Source: Naegleria gruberi
Taxonomy: Eukaryota
DNA: 13,269 nucleotides
Reading direction: 5' to 3' (one strand)
NCBI GenBank assembly: GCA_000004985.1
Contig: GG738997.1
Positions within the stretch are counted from its first letter, which is position 1. Every line of letters begins with the position of its first letter. Shown here piece by piece: positions 2,395 through 13,269 of the stretch. Below the pieces are notes generated by a model. It saw nothing but the letters and a program-made list of their open reading frames with translations. It searched no databases and was not told the DNA's origin. Position numbers and translations under genes: made by a program.

Positions 2395-3116
2395 GTGAGA
2401 AGAGCATATTATTCGATTTTCGGTAAACAAAAAACAAAAAACGAAACCGAAACCGAACCGGAAGATGACGATGTTTCCGAAAATGTTGATGAAGATATGA
2501 TAGAAAGACAAGAATTTACTGATAGAATGGACAGTTATCTTGCTGAATCTGAGCAAAAAACTGAGAAGAAGAGAAAGAGACAACTTGAGAAGGAGCCAAC
2601 TTATGATGATGAGATGATGAATGTGATTACGAACAATCAGATGAAGATTACGAATATTCGGATGAAGATATTTTACCGGCAACTCCGTCGAAAGTAACAA
2701 AGGTAGTGAGCATTAATGACAAATCAACAAGTTTATTCCGTCCTTTTAGATTCGAATCAGAGACTCATCGCTTCATCATTTATAGATTTCCCACATGGAC
2801 TGATTTTAAATTTTCACATGTGGAGATGTCAAAAGAAAAGATGATAGTTATTCATGTGAAGATTAATGCTAAACTTTCCGAAAGTTGTGTAGTAGAATCT
2901 TTCGCTCCATTTGCGAAAAATTTAAAAGCGAACACTGACAGAAAGGATGAACAGTTCACCATCAAAGAACCGGTTCCGAAAGATGTTGATGTTAAAACTG
3001 TAAAGTGTGGTCCTTTGAATTTGAAAGGCCTTAGTAGTACCGTTTCAGTTTTACCTAGTTGTAATAAACATCGGAAATCTATTTATGAATTTACACAAAA
3101 AACTCGAGGAAGTTAA
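2395..3116 (+). other. Two adjacent ORFs of uncertain reality: an acidic 100-aa ORF at 2395..2697 and a 136-aa ORF at 2706..3116 (first in-frame ATG near 2824). They may be TE-associated or decayed coding sequence next to the Harbinger remnant.
   Basis: The ORF track only. No in-frame ATG near the start of either ORF. No recognisable domain and no Myb/SANT W-spacing. Confidence 0.15.
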
Positions 3117-3122
3117 ATGATC

Positions 3123-3126
<4 letters not shown>

Positions 3127-3164
<38 letters not shown>
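3127..3164. repeat. (AT)19 microsatellite in the spacer between the 2395..3116 ORFs and the 3' end of the minus-strand gene
   Basis: Direct reading of the sequence. Confidence 0.95.
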
Positions 3165-3167
<3 letters not shown>

Positions 3168-3178
3168 TATTTTCAACA

Positions 3179-4176
3179 TCAATTTGTTCCAGTTAATTTT
3201 AAATCCATAGCTCTAAGAACCTCGTTAAAACCATTTGTCTTTTTCTTGTTGTTAAAGTTTTTCCTTGCTTTGATGAAGGATCTGTTAAACTCCAAAACAG
3301 TATCATCTAAAAACAATTTTTCCTCTTTGTTCACATCTAATTCAACTAAAGTATCCTTCAGCTTGTATTGTTTTCTAGTAATTGTTACATCTTGTACCTT
3401 GAAAATATCATTGTTCAATTCGTCAATAATCAATTTCAATTCATTTCTACAGGCAATAACTTCTGATGAATTGACAGATAATCCATCATAACCATGAATG
3501 CATTTTCCCTTGTAAACTTCATTCAATTCTAACGTCTTGTTTAGCATTACAAATTTCTTATTTTTGTAATCTAAAATCTTATCTTCAGTATAATTTTTGG
3601 AATTCGCAGCCATAACCCCAAATGCAATTTCTCCAATTTCTTCGGAGAACATAGTAAAATTTTCCGTAAAAAAGTCATGAAACGTTTTGGACTTCTTCTT
3701 CCAAAATTCAAATAACAAAGATTGGAATATTTCTGCATTCCTATACAAGTTATGTTTTCCCAAAATAAATAGGTATGTTAATACATCTCTAGATAATGAA
3801 AATTCATTCCAATTTCCAACTCTCAATGCATAATAATAACTTCTAAGGGCTGGTAAAATTGTCTCAAAAAGAATTGTAAAGTTTTTGGCAGCTATCGTAG
3901 TAGTTCTAACATAACAATCATCAGGTAGAGTGTAGTAAGCAAGAGAAACAACATTAATTATATCAGTTAGTTGTTGTAAACCCATTGATTTTTCAAGATA
4001 GCTGGTCACATTGGGATAAGCAGCTTTCAATAAGCGCAATAAATAGTTTTTTCCAAATAGTCTCCAAGTTACAATTGATCCCATTTTATAAACGTGCCAG
4101 AAACCGTTTACACAGATAAATCTTTGTGAATAGTGTTTAAAATTAGTATAATTATGAGACAGTTGAATAATCTTTA

Positions 4177-4216
<40 letters not shown>

Positions 4217-5124
4217 AAAAAAAAACTTACCTTGTAAACTCTTTGAAAAATGTTTACATCAACCTTAAGCATTATCATTTTGTCTTTTGGATACTTTGAA
4301 TCTAGCATCATCAGAACTTGTAAAAGACCTTCGTTTGAATTTATCACATAGGGATCTAGACTTACAGTACGATACTTTGACATTGAAGTGTAGTCATTTA
4401 CGTGTCCATCTGGGTTTCTAATTGGATTATTAAAAAAACCGTCTTTTGAGGGATGTGACTGAAAAGCCCAACAACTATAAACATTCTCATCATCAAAAGG
4501 GTCAATACTTGTTATTGTGTTAAAAACAGATTCATAACAGAATCCGTCGTCCATATTAAATATTACATTATCAAATACTGTGAACTTTTGTAATACAAGT
4601 TTTTGTTTTTTAAATGTGAAACCAGTTGCTGTATAATGTTGATTTGTAAAAACAGCTCGTACAACCTTCATCCTTTTATAGGAAAATATTAAATCAAAGT
4701 TATCTACATGAAACACAACAAGTATATCATCATCTTCAATAATAATTTTAGTTTTTTCCTTTTCTACTCCATAAACTCTATCAAAGTGTCTGTAGAATGT
4801 TGTTTTAAATAATCTATTTTGTGTAAAACTTTTGATAATTCATTACTTACCCCATATCACAAGAGCTTAATAAATACTCGGCAAAACTGTTTGAACAGTT
4901 ATTACGAATAAACATGGCATGAAGAAATCTTTGTTTGTTGTTGTTTCTTTTATGATACTTTAAAAGTGTTAAAACATGAATATGAAACTTCTGCTTATAA
5001 TTCCACAATTCTTCTGAAGTAATATCATTATTGAAAATTAGTAAATTTTCTCTAGAAAATTAACAATTAGACTGGTAAATGTGTGAACAACATACCGTTC
5101 CTTAATAACAAATGATTCAAACAT
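3179..5124 (-). CDS. Four-exon gene on the minus strand encoding a 601-aa protein of unknown function. CDS join(5124..5096, 5051..4851, 4813..4231, 4171..3179), with introns 5095..5052 (44 nt), 4850..4814 (37 nt) and 4230..4172 (59 nt, containing (TA)16).
   Basis: The ATG at 5124..5122 is followed by a gtatgt donor. The phases at all three junctions are consistent: CG|A gives R, GG|A gives G, and a phase-0 join gives K|I. The total CDS is 1806 nt, which is 602 codons. In-frame stops in the introns force splicing. Polypeptide begins MFESFVIKERENLLIFNNDITSEELWNYKQKF and ends KLTGTN. I recognise no conserved domain. Confidence 0.7.
4181..4212. repeat. (TA)16 microsatellite inside intron 3 of the minus-strand gene
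   Basis: Direct reading. Confidence 0.95.
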
Positions 5125-5151
5125 CTCGGAGTTTCCTTTGAACACTAAGAA

Positions 5152-5186
<35 letters not shown>

Positions 5187-5347
5187 TACTTCAACAACAT
5201 ACATAAAGATGGGTATTCTTGGTTGAAAATTGATGAGGTTGTACTAGGGTGAATGACATTGTACCCTTTCAATTTGAAAAATGCGTCGTACAACCAAAAC
5301 TGCTCAATTTTCATGTATTTGTTTTGTTGTTGAAAATTTAAAAAAAA
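5125..5347. promoter_or_regulatory. Bidirectional promoter region shared by the divergent genes (minus ATG at 5124, plus ATG at 5348). It contains (AT)14 at 5155-5182 and three GTAC-core motifs, including the 8-bp inverted pair GGTTGTAC (5237-5244) / GTACAACC (5288-5295).
   Basis: The geometry of the two reconstructed genes. The inverted repeat was read directly from the sequence. Confidence 0.4.
5155..5182. repeat. (AT)14 microsatellite in the divergent promoter
   Basis: Direct reading. Confidence 0.95.
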
Positions 5348-5823
5348 ATGCCAAAATCACCTTCAGCAAAAACAAACAAACCAACAAGCCCAAATCTTAC
5401 AAAACCACAACCTCCATTCAAGAGACAAGCAATTCCGTTGCCGGAAAACATTGAACTTTTAAGTTGGAAGAGAGGAATTAATTCAAACAATTATATTTCT
5501 AACGGTGATAATTTTTGGTCTTTCCGTTTTGAAGATGGTTTGTTAACATTAACAAACTATCCGATGAGAACTGATGATGACGACCATCAAGTGGTTGATA
5601 TTTCCGGTGGCAGTAAAGTCGTAGGTAAATTGATGACTGTTGCCCATGTTGCTACTGATCCTAAAAGTGTCAATCAGGTTATTGGAGTAACTGTATTGAC
5701 AAATAGTGGTGTTAAAAACTTGGTTTTGCGCTTTGGTGATCTTCTAACAAGTGAGTTTACAAAGGAGAGCGGATTTGACCGCTCCCACTGTAAGAGGGTT
5801 GATATTTTTGTAAGTAAGTATCG

Positions 5824-5858
<35 letters not shown>

Positions 5859-6494
5859 ATATATCTAGAACATTGGAATAGTTATTTAACAGAACAAATG
5901 CAAAATGAGGGTGATGACGAAGCATCTAAAGATAAGACAACCCCAAGCAGGGATAAAAAGTCAAATCCATCAATTTTTGATGATGAAGATGAGAATGAGG
6001 ATGATGGTGTTAGTAAACAACTCAACTTTACTCAAGAGGACGTTCAAGATTTTAATTCCTCTAAAGAAACACCATCAGTTTCGAAGCTTAAGATCAAGAA
6101 AAGTAAGTACTAACTTGTTTATGTTTGTGTTAACAATTTGCAGAACCAAGAGCTTCTCTTACTTCCTCTTCTTCCTACGTTGTAAAAGGTTCAATGTCAA
6201 CCTCTAAAATTGCCTCCATCATTGTACCTAAAACAGACACACCTACCAACAAGAAAGATTTAGAGCTTGGTAGGACTGGAGAAATAATCAAACAATTTGG
6301 TTTTCCTGCTAGTGTCTCCATTAAGGTAACAAGAATTAAAGTTCCAGAGTCATCCATAGCTGTTCGTGAAATCAGTTTAGAGCATGTAAAATCAATTGTT
6401 GATGAGATTAGAGGTGGTGGAAAAGCGTTGAGCTCCGAAGTTGGTTTGGTTGAGATGAAAGTCGCTCCAAACAGTTCTGCTTCAGGTATGTAGT

Positions 6495-6537
<43 letters not shown>

Positions 6538-6975
6538 CAGTGACTATCAAAAATCTTGTACAAAAGTTGAAAAGAGAGAATAGGGACGAAGATGCAATAA
6601 TGGAAGAATTGCAAGAATTAATTGAGAACGATGAAGAAAACATCGAACTGTTTGTGCATGGTAGTACTCATTATACCCTTGCATTAACAGCTGCTTTTCA
6701 ACAATTACCTCAGATTGAAAGGACATCTGAAAACACACCTAGACATGACTATGTAAGTTTATTAATAATTTCTTTTCTTATTGTATTAGTATGTTGTATT
6801 CAATATCCCAGATCATGAGTTATTGCAATTAGCAACAATGCACAATACAAACGTCAAACAATTAGCTATGGATTTCCCTTCAATACTTATTAACGTGAGA
6901 AGAACCTTAAAATTCTTTCTAACGAAATATCCTAACTCTGTAATGTACGTTAACTCAGATGGAATAGAAGGTAAG

Positions 6976-7006
<31 letters not shown>

Positions 7007-7710
7007 TTTTTCACAAATAATTTTTTCAGAGAGGAGACTTATTAGATTTGTGGAAGGAGGAGCAAAGCTTTTTAAAAGCGAAATAATTAAGGTATTTGGT
7101 CTCAATGAAAACTCAGCAATACACTATCAGACTCTATCATTTTGGTCTCATAGATGTTGGGATAGGCTTGTTGAAATTGCTAAAACTAAAAAGAAGAATA
7201 GTAATACTCCTTTACTTAAAAGTTTAGCTACTTTTATTACAAAGGTTGGTAGTTGCAAAGGTATTCCTGAAGAAGAGATATATTATTCGCTTGAGCAATT
7301 CTTGAATTTTGGTAACATTCAAAGTATGGTTAATCATATCAATCATACCAAGTGTGTATTATTTGGATTTAGCGAAATTACAAAGTATTTTTCTGAAATA
7401 CCTGATTTAAAAGGAATGGCAAAGAGACTTCCAAACATTTACAAAGCATTAGTTAGTGATTCAATGCACGACTCAGAATTGAAACAAGTAGAAGAAAAAA
7501 CATTGTCATTCACTTCCACCGACTTGTACTTAAATATTAGAAGAGAGTTAAGTGGAAACCCTAAAACTTCTTCGACTACAGATGTATCATTTCCAGTTGT
7601 GACAGAACAGTTGAAAGTAGAACGAAATGGTTATTCGGCAATATTATTATATGGAGATGTTTTGGAGTTAGCAAACATCTTTCCAAAGAAAGTATCGTAT
7701 GGTAAGTTTT

Positions 7711-7748
<38 letters not shown>

Positions 7749-8635
7749 CAAATGTAGATTTAATGATTTGCGATTTGCCATATGGTGTTTTTAAAGATTC
7801 CCCTTATGATGTCTTATTTACTGATGACCAATTGAAAGAGTTTATTGACAATTTATACCAAATCACTCCAGACACGAATTTTCCAACTTGGATCTTCTTT
7901 GGGGAGTATAAGCAAATTGTAAAGCTTCAAGAATTAATTGAACTAAAGAAAGGCAATGCAGTTATATGTATTTGGGTGAAAAATGGTCGTCAATTTGGTG
8001 CAAACTTTGGTACGTATAAGTATGAAAGCTTCCTTCTTTGCTTCCCCAACAAGCAAGTGAATATCAAGCCACAGGGTTTCAGTTTATCACCATTCAGTAT
8101 TTGCTTTCCATCAGAGACTAACTTTTTGAAAGACTCCAACTCAAGAGAGTGTAACAAGGGTCAGAAGCCTCTTTCTTTAATTTCGTGGCTTGTTTATCAA
8201 TTTTCCAACGTTGACGGTATTGTTCTTGATTTATGTTCGGGAACTGCCACCACAGCAGTAGCTGCAGTTAGTTATGGTAGAAATTCGATCAGTTTAGAAA
8301 GTAATCATGGCCAATTCGAACACGCTGCAGAACGACTCAAATTATCAGAATTTGAGAAGGTAAATTTTGAACCCTTAGTTGTTTGTACAGTATCTGAAGA
8401 CAAGGAAAAAAAGGAAAAAAAGAAATCTACAAAAAGAAAAACAGCACCCACCAAGAAAACACCGAAAAAAGCAAGCAAAAAGAAAAAAACTGAAACACCT
8501 TTAAAGGGAAGTAAAATGCAATCGAAAAAGGCAGAGGAAATTGCGATGAAATACATAGACAGCGAAGCAGTAGAAATGGCATCTGATGAAGAGAATGTCA
8601 GCGAAAAAGATGAGGAAGAAGATGATGAAGAATAG
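5348..8635 (+). CDS. Seven-exon gene encoding a ~994-aa protein. Its C-terminal third is a beta-class (motif IV then motif I) N6-adenine/N4-cytosine-type DNA amino-methyltransferase domain (N6_N4_Mtase fold), followed by a Lys-rich basic tail and an acidic tail. CDS join(5348..5813, 5869..6102, 6144..6485, 6541..6752, 6790..6970, 7030..7701, 7758..8635).
   Basis: Every junction is GT-AG and phase-consistent, and the exons sum to 2985 nt (995 codons). The first intron's acceptor is ambiguous (5868 or 5892), and both options stay in frame. The 37-nt intron 6753..6789 is forced, because an in-frame TAG sits immediately before the exon-5 start. MTase motifs: LLYGDVLELANIFPKKVSY|D|LMICDLPYG (compare GDxLExLxxLPxxSVDLIxTDPPY), GQKPLSLISWLVYQFSNVDGIVLDLCSGTATTAVAAVSYGRNSISLE (compare TQKPxxLxxRLIxxxSxxGDxVLDPFxGSGTTxxAAxxLGRxxIGIE), and HGQFEHAAERLK. 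Tail: KEKKEKKKSTKRKTAPTKKTPKKASKKKKTETPLKGSKMQSKK ... SDEENVSEKDEEEDDEE-stop. Confidence 0.85.
5827..5854. repeat. (AT)14 in intron 1 of the methyltransferase gene
   Basis: Direct reading. Confidence 0.95.
6498..6529. repeat. (AT)16 in intron 3 of the methyltransferase gene
   Basis: Direct reading. Confidence 0.95.
6981..7006. repeat. (AT)13 in intron 5 of the methyltransferase gene
   Basis: Direct reading. Confidence 0.95.
7714..7745. repeat. (AT)16 in intron 6 of the methyltransferase gene. This intron interrupts the MTase catalytic domain.
   Basis: Direct reading. Confidence 0.95.
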
Positions 8636-8649
8636 AGGGAAATGATATT

Positions 8650-8655
8650 AATAAA
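8650..8655 (+). terminator. AATAAA hexamer 15 nt after the TAG stop of the methyltransferase gene. Candidate polyadenylation signal.
   Basis: Motif presence only. AT-rich genomes contain many chance AATAAA hexamers. Confidence 0.3.
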
Positions 8656-8676
8656 ATGAATTAAACGAGTTGTTGT

Positions 8677-8678
<2 letters not shown>

Positions 8679-8708
<30 letters not shown>
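8679..8708. repeat. (AT)15 microsatellite downstream of the methyltransferase gene
   Basis: Direct reading. Confidence 0.95.
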
Positions 8709-8711
<3 letters not shown>

Positions 8712-8868
8712 CACAAGTATTAGTTAAAATACTAAAACATTAAATTTCAAATCTCTAAAAACAACAAAAAAAAGTTTATGAATCTACAAAACTAAATACT
8801 AAAAATCGAATTATGACCAAGAAATACACTAAACCATCAAACGGTACTACTAAGAAGGCGTTTACGAT

Positions 8869-9120
8869 TTGGATGACCGTGTATTCGCAGTGCTATTAGA
8901 AAAGAAATTGCAAACATTCGCACCAACTTTTGATGCTAATGAATTGTCAAATTTCATTGCGAAGGCTTCTGTTACAAGTAGCTCTTCTGACACACAACTT
9001 GTCAACACTCAAACATCACAAGCGCTTACCAGCAACTCCACTGCCGCCACAACAGAAGATGCAACCGGCAACAAAGAAATCGCAAACGCAACTCAAAACA
9101 CAAGAGAAGAGTCTGAATAA
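8869..9120 (+). other. 83-aa ORF (MDDRVFAVLLEKKLQTFAPTFDANELSNF...). Either a small gene or an upstream ORF in a long leader of the downstream Zn2Cys6 gene.
   Basis: An ATG-initiated ORF in a locally GC-richer segment. The ORF stop and the TF start codon are separated by 258 nt of CT-rich, leader-like sequence with no further long ORF. No homology is recognised. Confidence 0.25.
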
Positions 9121-9378: not shown

Positions 9379-11920
9379 ATGAAGCCTTTAGCTGTGATGG
9401 TGAAAGTGGAGCCTGGGCAACAACAACAATCGCCATCCACTCCATCCACACCAACCAATTCCTCCTCCACCAATAATACCACAAATAATTCTCATATTGC
9501 TTCTAGTGGTCACCATCATCATGTGGGTAATAATCATAATCATCAGCACAATAATTTAATCATGATGAATCCGAGTTCATCAATTTACCCTTCCTGTTTG
9601 CCTCTTGCTATGAAGAGCAATTCTTCCTCTTTTATTCCTTCCCAGACACCTCCACCTCCACATCAACAAGGATTCAGTCTTCCTTCCATTCATAATTTGA
9701 CTTCACAACAACCATCTTCAAAAGTCATGGTGGATCACATTCATCACTATCAACAACAACATCCACAATCGTGGCGTGGTAATAATATGGAACCAAAACC
9801 ACCTCTTCATAGTAATGGTGGTCATGATTTGATGGAAGCCTTGTCAGCACAACCACAAACTATTGTAAGATATGCACCTCCTCTTTATCAAGCCATTATT
9901 CAACCAAGTATTGATATTGTTCCTATGGATAGTTTTATTCCTGGCTATATATCTGGATACAGAAAGACTCCACAGCAAGTAACAATTGGGACAAGTCCTG
10001 AAATGCAACCATCATCTAATCCTTCCTCTTCCACAACAACTGGAATTATTGTCACAAACAGTCCTACCATGACACCAGTTAAGGTTTCTCACTGTATTGC
10101 TGACCAAGAGTTGGTAAAGACAACACAATCAGTAATAGTGGCCTCCTCATCCGCCCAACAAGCCCCTTCATCCAATAACACCCAAACCCAACAACCACCC
10201 ACAGATCCAAGTCAAGCCAGAATGGCATGTATAAATTGTAGAAAATCACATCGTAAATGGTAAGTATTTTCAATGTATTAGGCAGGTTGTTATTGACTCT
10301 AATTTAGTGGTAAGTATTTGTAGAGATTACAGTAAAATTTACAGACCCCATTTTAAAGATAAGGGAATGCCTTGTGGTGAATGTAAAAAGAGAGGAATAC
10401 CTGATGAATGTGTTTATTATGAACCTAAGAAGAGAGGACCAAAGATGAAGACAGCTGAAGAGGAAGCTCAAAGTAAGGAGGAAGCAAAGAAAAGAAAGGT
10501 CTCTAAGAAGAATGAGGTTCCCTCTGCAACAGTAGTAGATTTGGAAAGGACCAATCTATTGCAGTCTAACTCTCAGATAATTGCCTCCAGCAGCTCCAAT
10601 GCAGCAACTACCACACCAGTAATCCCAGCCCTCTTCTCTAGAAAGGAAATTGATAGAAGAAATTACATTTTACACATGATCTTCCCTGAAGCAAACCTCC
10701 CTAATGATATTAAGGAAAACTGTCCAGATGATAGCTTTAACGAAATGTTTCGTCTCTTTTTATCAGATGAATTCGTTAGCTTTTTGGTTGAGTGTATGGA
10801 TGGTAATAAGAGTAAGAATCAATTGATGCCTTTCATTAGAGAAAAGGTTCTCCTCTCTATTCTCAATAGAATTATGGAACCATACTACCACGGCATGTAT
10901 TTTTCCCTAGAGTCTCTCTTTTTGAAATACTATTGTCTATTCAAGCTCTCCCCACATGATGATAATAGACCAATCTTATTGTTAGAAAGTGAGAAGAGTG
11001 TAAAGCAAAATAAGAAGGATTTCAATATTATCACCAATGACATACAGACTATAATTTGTAATCTGTGGAGTTCCTTCTTTAATACCATCCTCGAATTCAA
11101 GAGTGTGAATTCATCCTACAATCAACTCGTCATTAAGAATATGCTTGATCTAATTGTGAACAAGTTATCAGAGAATGTTGATATTCAAAGTGTATTGGAG
11201 TTACAACATGCTCTATTTACCAGATACTTGTTGCTCATTGAAATCCATCAACAGATTGAGGGATGTACAACCAATAGTGTACAGTTCAAGAAATTGGTGT
11301 TCAACTTTCTCAAGCTTACTTACCTCTCTGGAATCACTACGAAATCAGCAAAACTTGTCGATCAATTTGAAAAGTTTAACACGAAATTCTTTGCCATTCT
11401 CACTAGTCAGTACAGCTCCATGTCACTGAATACCAACTATGTTATGGCAGAAATGGAATGCTTTATTCCAAGAAACTTGACAGAATGTTTGACCTTCTTG
11501 AGCGTTATCACATCAGAAGGGGAGCAAGATTTGGAAGTTCTCTTCTTGGAGTACATGTCCAAGTTGTTGAACTTGAGTATTTACATGCAAGGTATTCTCA
11601 ACACTAACGATAAGAATCTTCAAGAAATGAATGCAAGCGTTGGGAAAGATTTCTTCCACATAGCCAAGAACCTCAAATCTCCAATTATTCTTTCAATCCT
11701 CAATTCCCTGCAGAATTATCTCATTACCTCCTTTTTTGAAAATACTATATCTATTCCAGAGTCTCCACAATTGGAAAATCAATTTAAGGAACGTATTTTA
11801 ACTAGTGCCAGTCAATTTGAACATCAAGATCATTTCTACTTGAGAGCAAGTAATTCTCTAATTCGAGGAAAAGATTTGTCAGAGATGCGGAAAGAGTCAA
11901 AGAAAGTATTTATAAAATAA
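9379..11920 (+). CDS. Zn(II)2Cys6 (fungal-type binuclear zinc cluster) transcription factor, about 822 aa, two exons. CDS join(9379..10259, 10333..11920). A low-complexity Q/H/N/S/P-rich N-terminal region of about 280 aa precedes the zinc cluster. A basic linker and a large C-terminal region follow it.
   Basis: The ATG at 9379 sits in an A-rich context (aaaaaact ATG). Exon 1 ends ...ACINCRKSHRK + tg. The intron has a gtaagt donor and a ttacag acceptor at 10331-10332. The splice restores TGT (Cys), giving ACINCRKSHRK-C-KIYRPHFKDKGMP-CGEC-KKRGIPDE-C, which is CX2CX6CX13CX2CX8C. The two exons sum to 2469 nt (823 codons). The spacing is within the known Zn2Cys6 range. The C-terminal domain was not matched to a named family. 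Confidence 0.75.
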
Positions 11921-11930
11921 TCTTGTAATA

Positions 11931-13269
11931 TTATTTACCATAGTATGGGATTGTGTTCTTCTTTCTGGAGAACCAAACATTTCTCTTACCAGTCTTGCCC
12001 AAGTATGCAGTGATTGCTTCAACTGAAACTTCGCTTCCTCTAAAGATTTTTGGTGTGGATGATTTGAAAAAGAGTCCTGAAATTCCTGAGCTATCTTCTA
12101 AAACAACAACCTTATCATAGTATGCATTCAAAATGTAACGAATGGGCACAGCATCGTCTGCTGTCAATTCAGTAATAATGTGATCAATCATAAAGGAGAG
12201 TGTTCTCAAACCACCAGCAAAGACATCATCTGACTTTTTAGAAATATCAACCTTTAGCAAATTGATATGAATATCTGCCGAGAAGTAGTCCTCATCGAGT
12301 GAGATGGTTTCAACAGATCCTGGAGTCTTACTTTCAGTTTCCTCATCTGCAGTAACAACATTTGTAAGATCAGCATTGTACTTGGTTGAGTATTGAATAT
12401 ATTTTCTGGCATCTCTGAAAACAGCCAAGTTTTTAACTGAAACCAATTTGTCAACATCATTTAGAGATGCAGAACTCTTAATCACTTCCACCATTTTTGG
12501 TTGAATTTCATACGAGATAACTTTACAACCCAACAGTGCAGGATAAATTGAATAAAATCCCAAATGAGAACCAACATCAACAATGAGACACTTCTTTCCA
12601 GTTATTTTTGAATCTCTTTGGAATTTCTCAATTAACATTTTGAATAGTTCTTCAGTTGCTGATTCCCAATTGCCATATCTAACCATGTGCTTTGAAAATC
12701 CAGTATCTCTAGCAGGATTCAACACTCTCATATAAAAGGATGGATTGGTATTTGTTTTTACAATATACCCAACAAGTCTATTATCATCTCTAACCAATGG
12801 AATCAAACCCTTTGGTTTGTTAGATTGTACAGCAATTAAAATCATAAATATCAATCCAATAACTGCCAATACAGAAATAATCAAATTCCTTGAAGGCAAC
12901 TTGTCCAAAAATGTTAAATATTTCGCTTTAATTCCACACATTCTCAATAAATTTCTAAATATTCTCGGAATGAAAGAAAAGATACTTCCAAGCCTTCTCA
13001 TCCAAACACCAGAAAAAGCCTTCACCGATTTTTCTCCCAAAATATTACTTTCATGATTTAATATTAATGGGAGTTGTTGATTTAAAGTACTACCACCACC
13101 ACCACTAGTAGCCATCTCCTCATCCTTTGATGGTGGCGATCGGGAAATTATATTAGATGAAACTGTTGTTGTTGTATTGGATCGGTTAAAGTTAGTCATG
13201 ATTGGTGCGAGTTCATCATCATCGGAATTATTTATTCTGATCAAAGATGACGACAATGAAGAATCATTA
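11931..13269 (-). CDS. FkbM-family (Methyltransf_21) SAM-dependent methyltransferase with a predicted N-terminal transmembrane anchor (LIISVLAVIGLIFMILIAV). It is 5'-partial: the reading frame stays open to the right edge of the window and the reported TTG start is not the true start.
   Basis: Motifs: KKCLIVDVGSHLGFYSIYPALLGCKVISYEIQPKMVEVI (compare vfDvGAniG..slyfa..ga.rviafEP of FkbM), and INLLKVDISKKSDDVFAGGLRTL (compare idllKiDvEGaE). Single exon over 441+ codons. Stop codon TAA at 11933..11931. Confidence 0.8.
   Translation of the reverse strand, partial: NDSSLSSSLIRINNSDDDELAPIMTNFNRSNTTTTVSSNIISRSPPSKDEEMATSGGGGSTLNQQLPLILNHESNILGEKSVKAFSGVWMRRLGSIFSFIPRIFRNLLRMCGIKAKYLTFLDKLPSRNLIISVLAVIGLIFMILIAVQSNKPKGLIPLVRDDNRLVGYIVKTNTNPSFYMRVLNPARDTGFSKHMVRYGNWESATEELFKMLIEKFQRDSKITGKKCLIVDVGSHLGFYSIYPALLGCKVISYEIQPKMVEVIKSSASLNDVDKLVSVKNLAVFRDARKYIQYSTKYNADLTNVVTADEETESKTPGSVETISLDEDYFSADIHINLLKVDISKKSDDVFAGGLRTLSFMIDHIITELTADDAVPIRYILNAYYDKVVVLEDSSGISGLFFKSSTPKIFRGSEVSVEAITAYLGKTGKRNVWFSRKKNTIPYYGK

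Follow-up and report, generated by a model that had tools for sequence, protein, structure and literature searches.

A probable DDE-type transposase paired head to head with a DNA methylase gene in a cut-and-paste transposon of Naegleria gruberi

In a 13,269-nucleotide stretch of Naegleria gruberi DNA (assembly GCA_000004985.1, contig GG738997.1; hereafter the window), a spliced gene on the minus strand lies head to head with a gene for a DNA methylase, and the locus raises the question of what the minus-strand gene encodes and why the two are paired. The window consists of AT-rich eukaryotic sequence, and its introns are short and of the GT..AG type. The original prediction, made from the sequence alone, described a four-exon gene for a 601-residue protein without a recognisable domain, sharing a 223-bp promoter with the methylase gene. 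Its product was supposed to be either a co-regulated partner of the methylase (a reader, cofactor or antagonist) or an orphan, lineage-specific protein. Here we show that both genes lie inside one cut-and-paste DNA transposon that interrupts another gene, and we argue that the protein, 637 amino acids (aa) long in our model, is probably the transposase of this element.

The element and its insertion site

The element occupies window positions 3030-8854 (5,825 bp) and holds exactly two intact divergent genes. It is bounded by perfect 16-bp terminal inverted repeats, which are flanked directly by a 5-bp target-site duplication (Table 1). The repeats enclose exactly both genes, lying 134 bp and 204 bp past their respective stop codons. 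Within the window no further copy of the repeat was found, even allowing three mismatches, and two matches were seen in 0 of 200 shuffles. When the flanks were shuffled, an inverted match of at least 16 nt arose once in 2000 trials (~5e-4), and the chance that all five positions of the duplication match is ~0.0017 at the window's base composition. The insertion site adds a third feature of this kind. Removal of 3030-8859 joins two half open reading frames (ORFs) in frame (...CGPLNLKG followed by VYDLDDRVFAVLLEKK...), and the joined ORF runs on through 87 further codons, for which the chance is ~0.0012 at the same base composition. The empty site is an in silico reconstruction by deletion, and one insertion was examined.

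The repeats, the duplication and the restored ORF identify a cut-and-paste transposon inserted into a gene. That all three arose by coincidence, with no mobile element at this locus, is hardly credible; such a view could draw on the single examinable insertion and on the inverted repeats not recovered on the contig of a distant relative (L003, introduced below), but it would require three independent rare features to coincide at the same two points. Because the repeats are identical, the duplication is intact and the two genes are uninterrupted, the sequence suggests a recent insertion. A scan with the inverted-repeat sequence returned 18 single matches, which is about chance level.

The interrupted ORF, with halves at about 2600-3029 and 8860-9120 on the plus strand, would encode an acidic, Ser/Thr-rich protein of ~225 aa without a Pfam match. 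It adjoins a truncated PIF/Harbinger-type transposase ORF on the minus strand (1726-2370; DDE_Tnp_4, E 1.4e-16), in which the part that should contain the catalytic Glu is missing and which probably belongs to a dead element. As the interrupted ORF adjoins this decayed transposase ORF, it may belong to an older Harbinger element as its second gene, in which case the insertion would be nested.

Relatives, gene structure and the conserved pairing

The spliced 637-aa protein matched nothing in Pfam, NCBIfam or the PDB sequences, which bears out the original statement that it has no recognisable domain; a first word-indexed protein search with it was likewise empty. An exhaustive HMMER (phmmer) search with exon 5 as query against 1.84 billion representatives (E<=1e-3) returned 30 relatives, the best at 6e-55 with 39% identity and another at 4e-45 with 59% identity, and the idea of an orphan, lineage-specific gene thus falls away. 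All 30 come from short metagenome or Logan contigs, as ORFs with no name or labelled “hypothetical”, and none has a significant Pfam match. Two profile-based word-indexed searches recovered only the relatives P0002 and P0018. Viral contigs scanned with the family profile gave no match, and a metagenome scan yielded one short locus without gene context. The closest relative (L001, 59% identical; Logan run SRR22387904) carries a frameshift at 240-330, before the FSEEIGE motif, and looks like a decayed copy; its contig stops ~130 bp downstream of the stop codon, at about the place where an inverted repeat like that of the window would be expected.

Two diverged copies reveal the gene context of the family. 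On the 6.5-kb contig L003, a relative ~25% identical to the 637-aa protein (P0004) has three divergent ORFs directly upstream, which taken together look like the methylase gene of the window; the last of them carries a PF01555 domain and matches the window methylase at E 6e-10, and the middle one matches at E 5e-6. On contig L004, the divergent ORF resembles, by eye, the N-terminal domain of the L003 methylase gene, and the contig ends short of any methylase domain. Both contigs derive from a single further sequencing run, and the copies on them are diverged paralogues, which is what a transposon family would be expected to show. Judged by these sequence comparisons, the head-to-head linkage is kept down to ~25% protein identity. 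The pairing was assessed on L003 and L004, the contexts of P0001, P0013, P0015 and P0016 being too short or without DNA.

These copies also help to define the gene itself. Our best model has five exons on the minus strand (5314..3179) without an internal stop, every donor being GTAAGT or GTATGT and every acceptor AG. We accept exon 1 because the exon 1/2 junction is conserved (YPSLLFKGNSEMFESFV in the window versus FPSSHISGCNILFEQYV in L003 and HPSTILPGCNILFEMWL in L004) and because the full-length relatives are similar in size (652 and 661 aa versus 637 aa). The exon 4/5 junction is spanned without a gap by the intron-less L003 relative. The original prediction is thus borne out in that a spliced gene is present (minus strand, 3179-5314), whereas its exon count, protein length and spacer need revision: its model evidently starts at an internal ATG at 5124 (MFESFV...), skipping exon 1, and the 223 bp is the distance from this ATG to that of the methylase gene, the real spacer being 33 bp. 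The corresponding spacers measure 185 bp in L003 and 199 bp in L004. The peptide that had been quoted for the gene (CWAFQSHPSKDGFF...SLDPYV) corresponds to residues 227-269 (window 4473-4345). The intron at 4230-4172, after “...RVYK”, agrees in alignment position and phase with an L004 intron (2385-2461) after “...RFCK”, in a relative ~23% identical; the L003 copy has no intron at the RVYK position.

Since the two genes are co-mobile inside one transposon, their pairing has an explanation other than host co-regulation of a reader or cofactor, namely that both are parts of one mobile element interrupting another ORF. An ordinary host pair with a bidirectional promoter, in which the protein is a co-regulated methylase partner or a lineage-specific orphan, would fit the very short head-to-head spacer, the spliceosomal introns in both genes, and the intron position common to a distant relative, which points to long residence in eukaryotes. 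Yet the 16-bp repeats and the 5-bp duplication bracket exactly this pair, their removal restores an ORF, one further sample yields two diverged paralogues, and a protein with 30 relatives is no orphan. We consider the host-pair explanation largely refuted and very improbable. The linkage that had been noticed is no accident, as it recurs in L003 at ~25% identity and, with the N-terminal ORF matched by eye, in L004; a functional interplay of the 637-aa protein with the methylase is possible. As a whole, the original interpretation is partly supported.

The case for a transposase

Conserved residues and predicted structures together make the 637-aa protein a probable DDE-type transposase of an unclassified family. 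An Asp-Asn pair (D150) is present in all five sequences that cover its region (three full-length members, P0008 and P0016), and D298 (KVDVN) is invariant in a seq­uence alignment of seven members. In the alignment of the three full-length members with P0008 and P0016, G275, W332-H333 (GFWH), P360, F409, P414, Y450, E484, G487, E488 and A495 are invariant as well. The acidic residues thus follow one another in the order D..D..E, with a spacing of D-148-D-186-E. Structures were predicted for exon 5 and for the relative P0008. In the P0008 model, the second Asp ends a strand, which is followed by a helix, a strand and a second helix that begins with the WH motif, and a long helical insertion (~150 aa) precedes the helix bearing the Glu motif. 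The AlphaFold model of exon 5 is mostly helical, with a predicted local distance difference test score (pLDDT) of 84. DDE transposases that contain an insertion domain, for example the hAT, P, Transib and MULE enzymes, typically have the layout seen for P0008. We infer that the protein folds as an RNase-H-like DDE nuclease. None of the element's other ORFs is a candidate transposase.

Several results weigh against this assignment. The P0008 model has a pLDDT below 50 around the first Asp, so that the RNase H fold and the geometry of the triad are hypothetical. No link to a known transposase emerged from Pfam, from a PDB profile search, or from hhalign against the P transposase. The L003 contig carries no detectable inverted repeats, which perhaps lie beyond its ends. 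As to the copy number in the source genome, exact-product look-ups of three window ORFs were empty.

These points lend some weight to a different division of labour, in which the element is real and the 637-aa protein is an accessory of the methylase (a targeting factor, a reader, or a restriction-modification-like nuclease), with an unrelated transposase acting in trans. The absence of detectable similarity to any transposase would be understandable in that case; the confidently modelled C-terminal 330 aa form a helical domain without a nuclease match, and strict co-occurrence with the methylase gene is also expected of a two-component functional module. However, only two genes are present in the element, and in Pfam searches the methylase product showed no recombinase signature. 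The invariant acidic D...D...E residues sit in a strand-helix-strand-helix setting typical of DDE enzymes, and an intact copy that looks autonomous and has perfect inverted repeats normally brings its own transposase gene. We therefore regard the accessory role as unlikely. For the 637-aa protein, the transposase of the 5,825-bp element is a better reading than a methylation reader or antagonist, and we hold it to be the probable one.

In the mechanism that we envision, catalytic metals would be bound by D150 (HVDN, at a strand end), D298 (KVDVN, at a strand end before a helix) and E484/E488 (in the FSEEIGEIAF helix). The 637-aa protein would bind the inverted repeats and then excise the element, which would be re-inserted via a 5-bp staggered cut.

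Among known superfamilies, we found none to which the protein could be assigned. For the P element and THAP9 (PDB 6P5A), hhalign gave no match, the P transposase sequence having been checked against 6P5A beforehand, and neither a THAP domain nor a Tnp_P_element Pfam match was present. The P-element target-site duplication is typically 7-8 bp. By contrast, the duplication here is 5 bp, and the insertion domain, helical in the prediction, shows nothing that resembles a GTP-binding domain. Of the superfamilies compared, only the Transib/RAG1-like and hAT5 groups fit a duplication of 5 bp (hAT5 and the CMCT clade in PMC12730594). The element shares with Transib and hAT5 the 5-bp duplication and a DDE-type layout in which a long insertion separates the second Asp from the Glu. 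Transib and CMCT were rejected, as the termini here are CTTAG...CTAAG, not CA...TG, and the alignment shows neither C(2)C nor H(3-4)H motifs. hAT (hAT5) was rejected on the lack of a hAT transposase core, of a C-terminal dimerisation domain and of any Pfam match at E<=10 for seven full or near-full family members, and Kyakuja-Dileera-Zisupton (KDZ) on the lack of a KDZ transposase Pfam match or CxC cysteine clusters in any of 31 members. RAG1, Transib and Hermes gave no match in PDB sequence or fold searches. A sub-threshold match of P0008 to DUF6589 (E 0.011, 14.9 bits versus a 27-bit cut-off) coincides exactly with the conserved core that holds the second Asp and the WH motif. It occurs in one of 29 family members only, and DUF6589 is itself of uncharacterised function; we take this sequence resemblance as a lead only. 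Literature searched on the run accessions, on DUF6589 and on methylase-carrying eukaryotic DNA transposons contained no description of this element.

Table 1. Features of the transposon and its insertion site in window coordinates
Feature	Position	Strand	Basis or remark
Interrupted ORF, upstream half	2600..3029	+	downstream half 8860-9120
Left target-site duplication AAGGC, 5 bp	3025..3029		directly outside left repeat; identical to 8855-8859
Left terminal inverted repeat CTTAGTAGTACCGTTT, 16 bp	3030..3045	+	perfect reverse complement of 8839-8854
(AT)19, left subterminal, 15 bp past stop of 637-aa gene	3127..3164		sequence scan
Exon 5 of 637-aa gene, aa 308-637 and stop	3179..4171	-	GFWH motif 4105-4094; FSEEIGEIAF (invariant E484/E485/G487/E488) 3649-3620
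Exon 4, aa 122-307	4231..4789	-	candidate catalytic D150 (HVDN; 4704-4702) and D298 (KVDVN; 4260-4258)
Exon 3	4851..5051	-	frame-preserving GT..AG splice sites
Exon 2	5096..5144	-	frame-preserving splice sites; G[CN]N..FE motif runs on from exon 1
Exon 1, start codon 5314-5312	5203..5314	-	splice model and homology over exon 1/2 junction; absent from the original prediction's model
Spacer separating the two divergent start codons, 33 bp	5315..5347		both gene models
Methylase gene, second gene of element, 994 aa, 7 exons	5348..8635	+	splice model; PF01555; exons 5348-5813, 5869-6102, 6144-6485, 6541-6752, 6790-6970, 7030-7701, 7758-8635
Intronic (AT)n tracts	4180-4213, 5155-5182, 5827-5854, 6498-6529, 6981-7006, 7714-7745		sequence scan
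(AT)15, right subterminal, 44 bp past methylase stop	8679..8708		sequence scan
Right terminal inverted repeat, AAACGGTACTACTAAG on + strand	8839..8854	-	perfect reverse complement of 3030-3045
Right target-site duplication AAGGC	8855..8859		identical to 3025-3029

The methylase, the AT palindromes and the wider setting

The partner gene encodes a protein with a C-terminal PF01555 domain (E 4.8e-9, 36.9 bits versus a 26.7-bit cut-off), in which motif IV (DLPY) is followed by QKP and then by motif I (SGTATT). By this motif order and the domain match, the 994-aa protein is classed as a beta-class N6-adenine/N4-cytosine methylase. Its matches among PDB sequences are CcrM, RsrI, DpnA and MboIIA, with DLPY aligning to the DPPY of CcrM, and NCBIfam models of adenine-specific DNA methyltransferases match at E 3.6e-10, below their own equivalog cut-offs. 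The ~700 N-terminal residues match nothing; a by-eye resemblance of aa 290-400 to a ParB/Srx-like domain found no Pfam support even at E<=10. Motif IV reads DLPY in the window (7763-7790) and DLVY in L003 (1195-1260), the differences from DPPY falling at the second and third positions, and the Asp just before motif I in the window (VLDLCSGTATT) is a Ser in L003 (ILSVFAGVGTT). Because both the window and L003 retain the catalytic Asp and Tyr of motif IV and the linkage is conserved, we infer from these sequences a selected accessory function for the methylase.

Simple palindromic tracts are a second trait of the element. The window holds eight (AT)13-19 tracts, six in introns of both element genes and one past each stop codon, and none lies in the window outside the element. 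On L003, six copies of ATATTAATAT (at 157, 2028, 3556, 4855, 4892 and 6436) compare with 0.07 expected, and L004 has six copies of ACATAT(W3)ATATGT (ACATATWWWATATGT; at 470, 522, 576, 2391, 2443 and 3478). In both contigs the motifs sit in introns and 3' flanks, some introns being bounded by an inverted pair; an intron bounded in this way resembles a tiny inserted element. On L001, an (AT)n run at 803-822 follows directly past the stop codon. As the motif differs between two copies from one sample, it tracks the element and not the host. The palindromes might serve as sites for binding or methylation or form hairpins in RNA; alternatively, the introns themselves might have arisen from tiny palindromic insertions.

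DNA- or chromatin-modifying cargo has precedents in other transposons. Fungal transposons encode TET/JBP dioxygenases, with SET-domain or VANC cargo also cited (PMC12730594), and giant-virus mariner elements carry a methyltransferase plus an endonuclease (PMC3627910), so that TET/JBP, SET and C5-methylase cargo is already known (PMC12730594, PMC3627910). The present element resembles such epigenetic-cargo transposons with terminal inverted repeats in its repeats, its duplication, its transposase gene (a probable one here) and a co-travelling DNA- or chromatin-modifier gene kept across diverged copies. It differs from them in that the cargo is a beta-class amino (N6-A/N4-C) methylase domain ending a 994-aa protein, that the putative transposase fits none of their superfamilies, and that the pairing is strictly head to head. 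In the literature searched, we found no description of an amino-methylase (N6-methyladenine/N4-methylcytosine, 6mA/4mC) as stable cargo of a cellular eukaryotic cut-and-paste element.

What the methylase might do for the element is a more speculative matter. Dam sets the timing of IS10 and IS50 transposition. By analogy with Dam and these insertion sequences, and with transposon-borne TET/JBP or methylase genes (PMC12730594, PMC3627910), the beta-class methylase may be a stable accessory that marks the element's own DNA, possibly its AT palindromes, and such a mark might time transposition or counter host silencing. Taken furthest, the element would be the founding example of an undescribed eukaryotic cut-and-paste superfamily, defined by a DDE-like transposase lacking any detectable relative in the catalogued families, a 5-bp duplication, CTTAG termini, an obligate amino-methyltransferase and copy-specific AT palindromes in its introns and ends, with the methylase writing 6mA/4mC on the palindromes as a private mark that gates transposition or shields the element from silencing. 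We consider this full picture rather unlikely; if true, a eukaryotic transposon would here carry a complete epigenetic system of its own.

The remaining genes of the window lie outside the element. A minus-strand gene at 1-930, which runs past the left window edge, contains leucine-rich repeats of 72 nt (24 aa), 7.7 of them in tandem (…ISxNxIGDEGAKxISEMKQLTSL…). Downstream, a two-exon gene on the plus strand (9380-11920) has a low-complexity Gln/Asn/His-rich N-terminus and a split fungal-type Zn2Cys6 cluster (CINCRKSHRKW / CGECKKRGIPDEC) with a weak Pfam match; its sole intron has no (AT)n tract, in contrast to most introns of the element. For an intron-less minus-strand ORF at 11931-13256 (~440 aa), unrelated to the element, a membrane segment is predicted, along with a weak signature of class-I methyltransferases (TRM5/TYW2-type, E 0.005).

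For annotation, the locus carries a warning: the element's methylase is not to be taken for an epigenetic enzyme of the host, and the ORF at 2600-3029 and 8860-9120 is a disrupted gene. A transposase family without a Pfam model, a solved relative or a superfamily would enlarge the eukaryotic catalogue and explain a set of metagenome “hypothetical proteins”. More broadly, transposons with their own DNA-modifying enzyme show mobile elements manipulating host epigenetic control.
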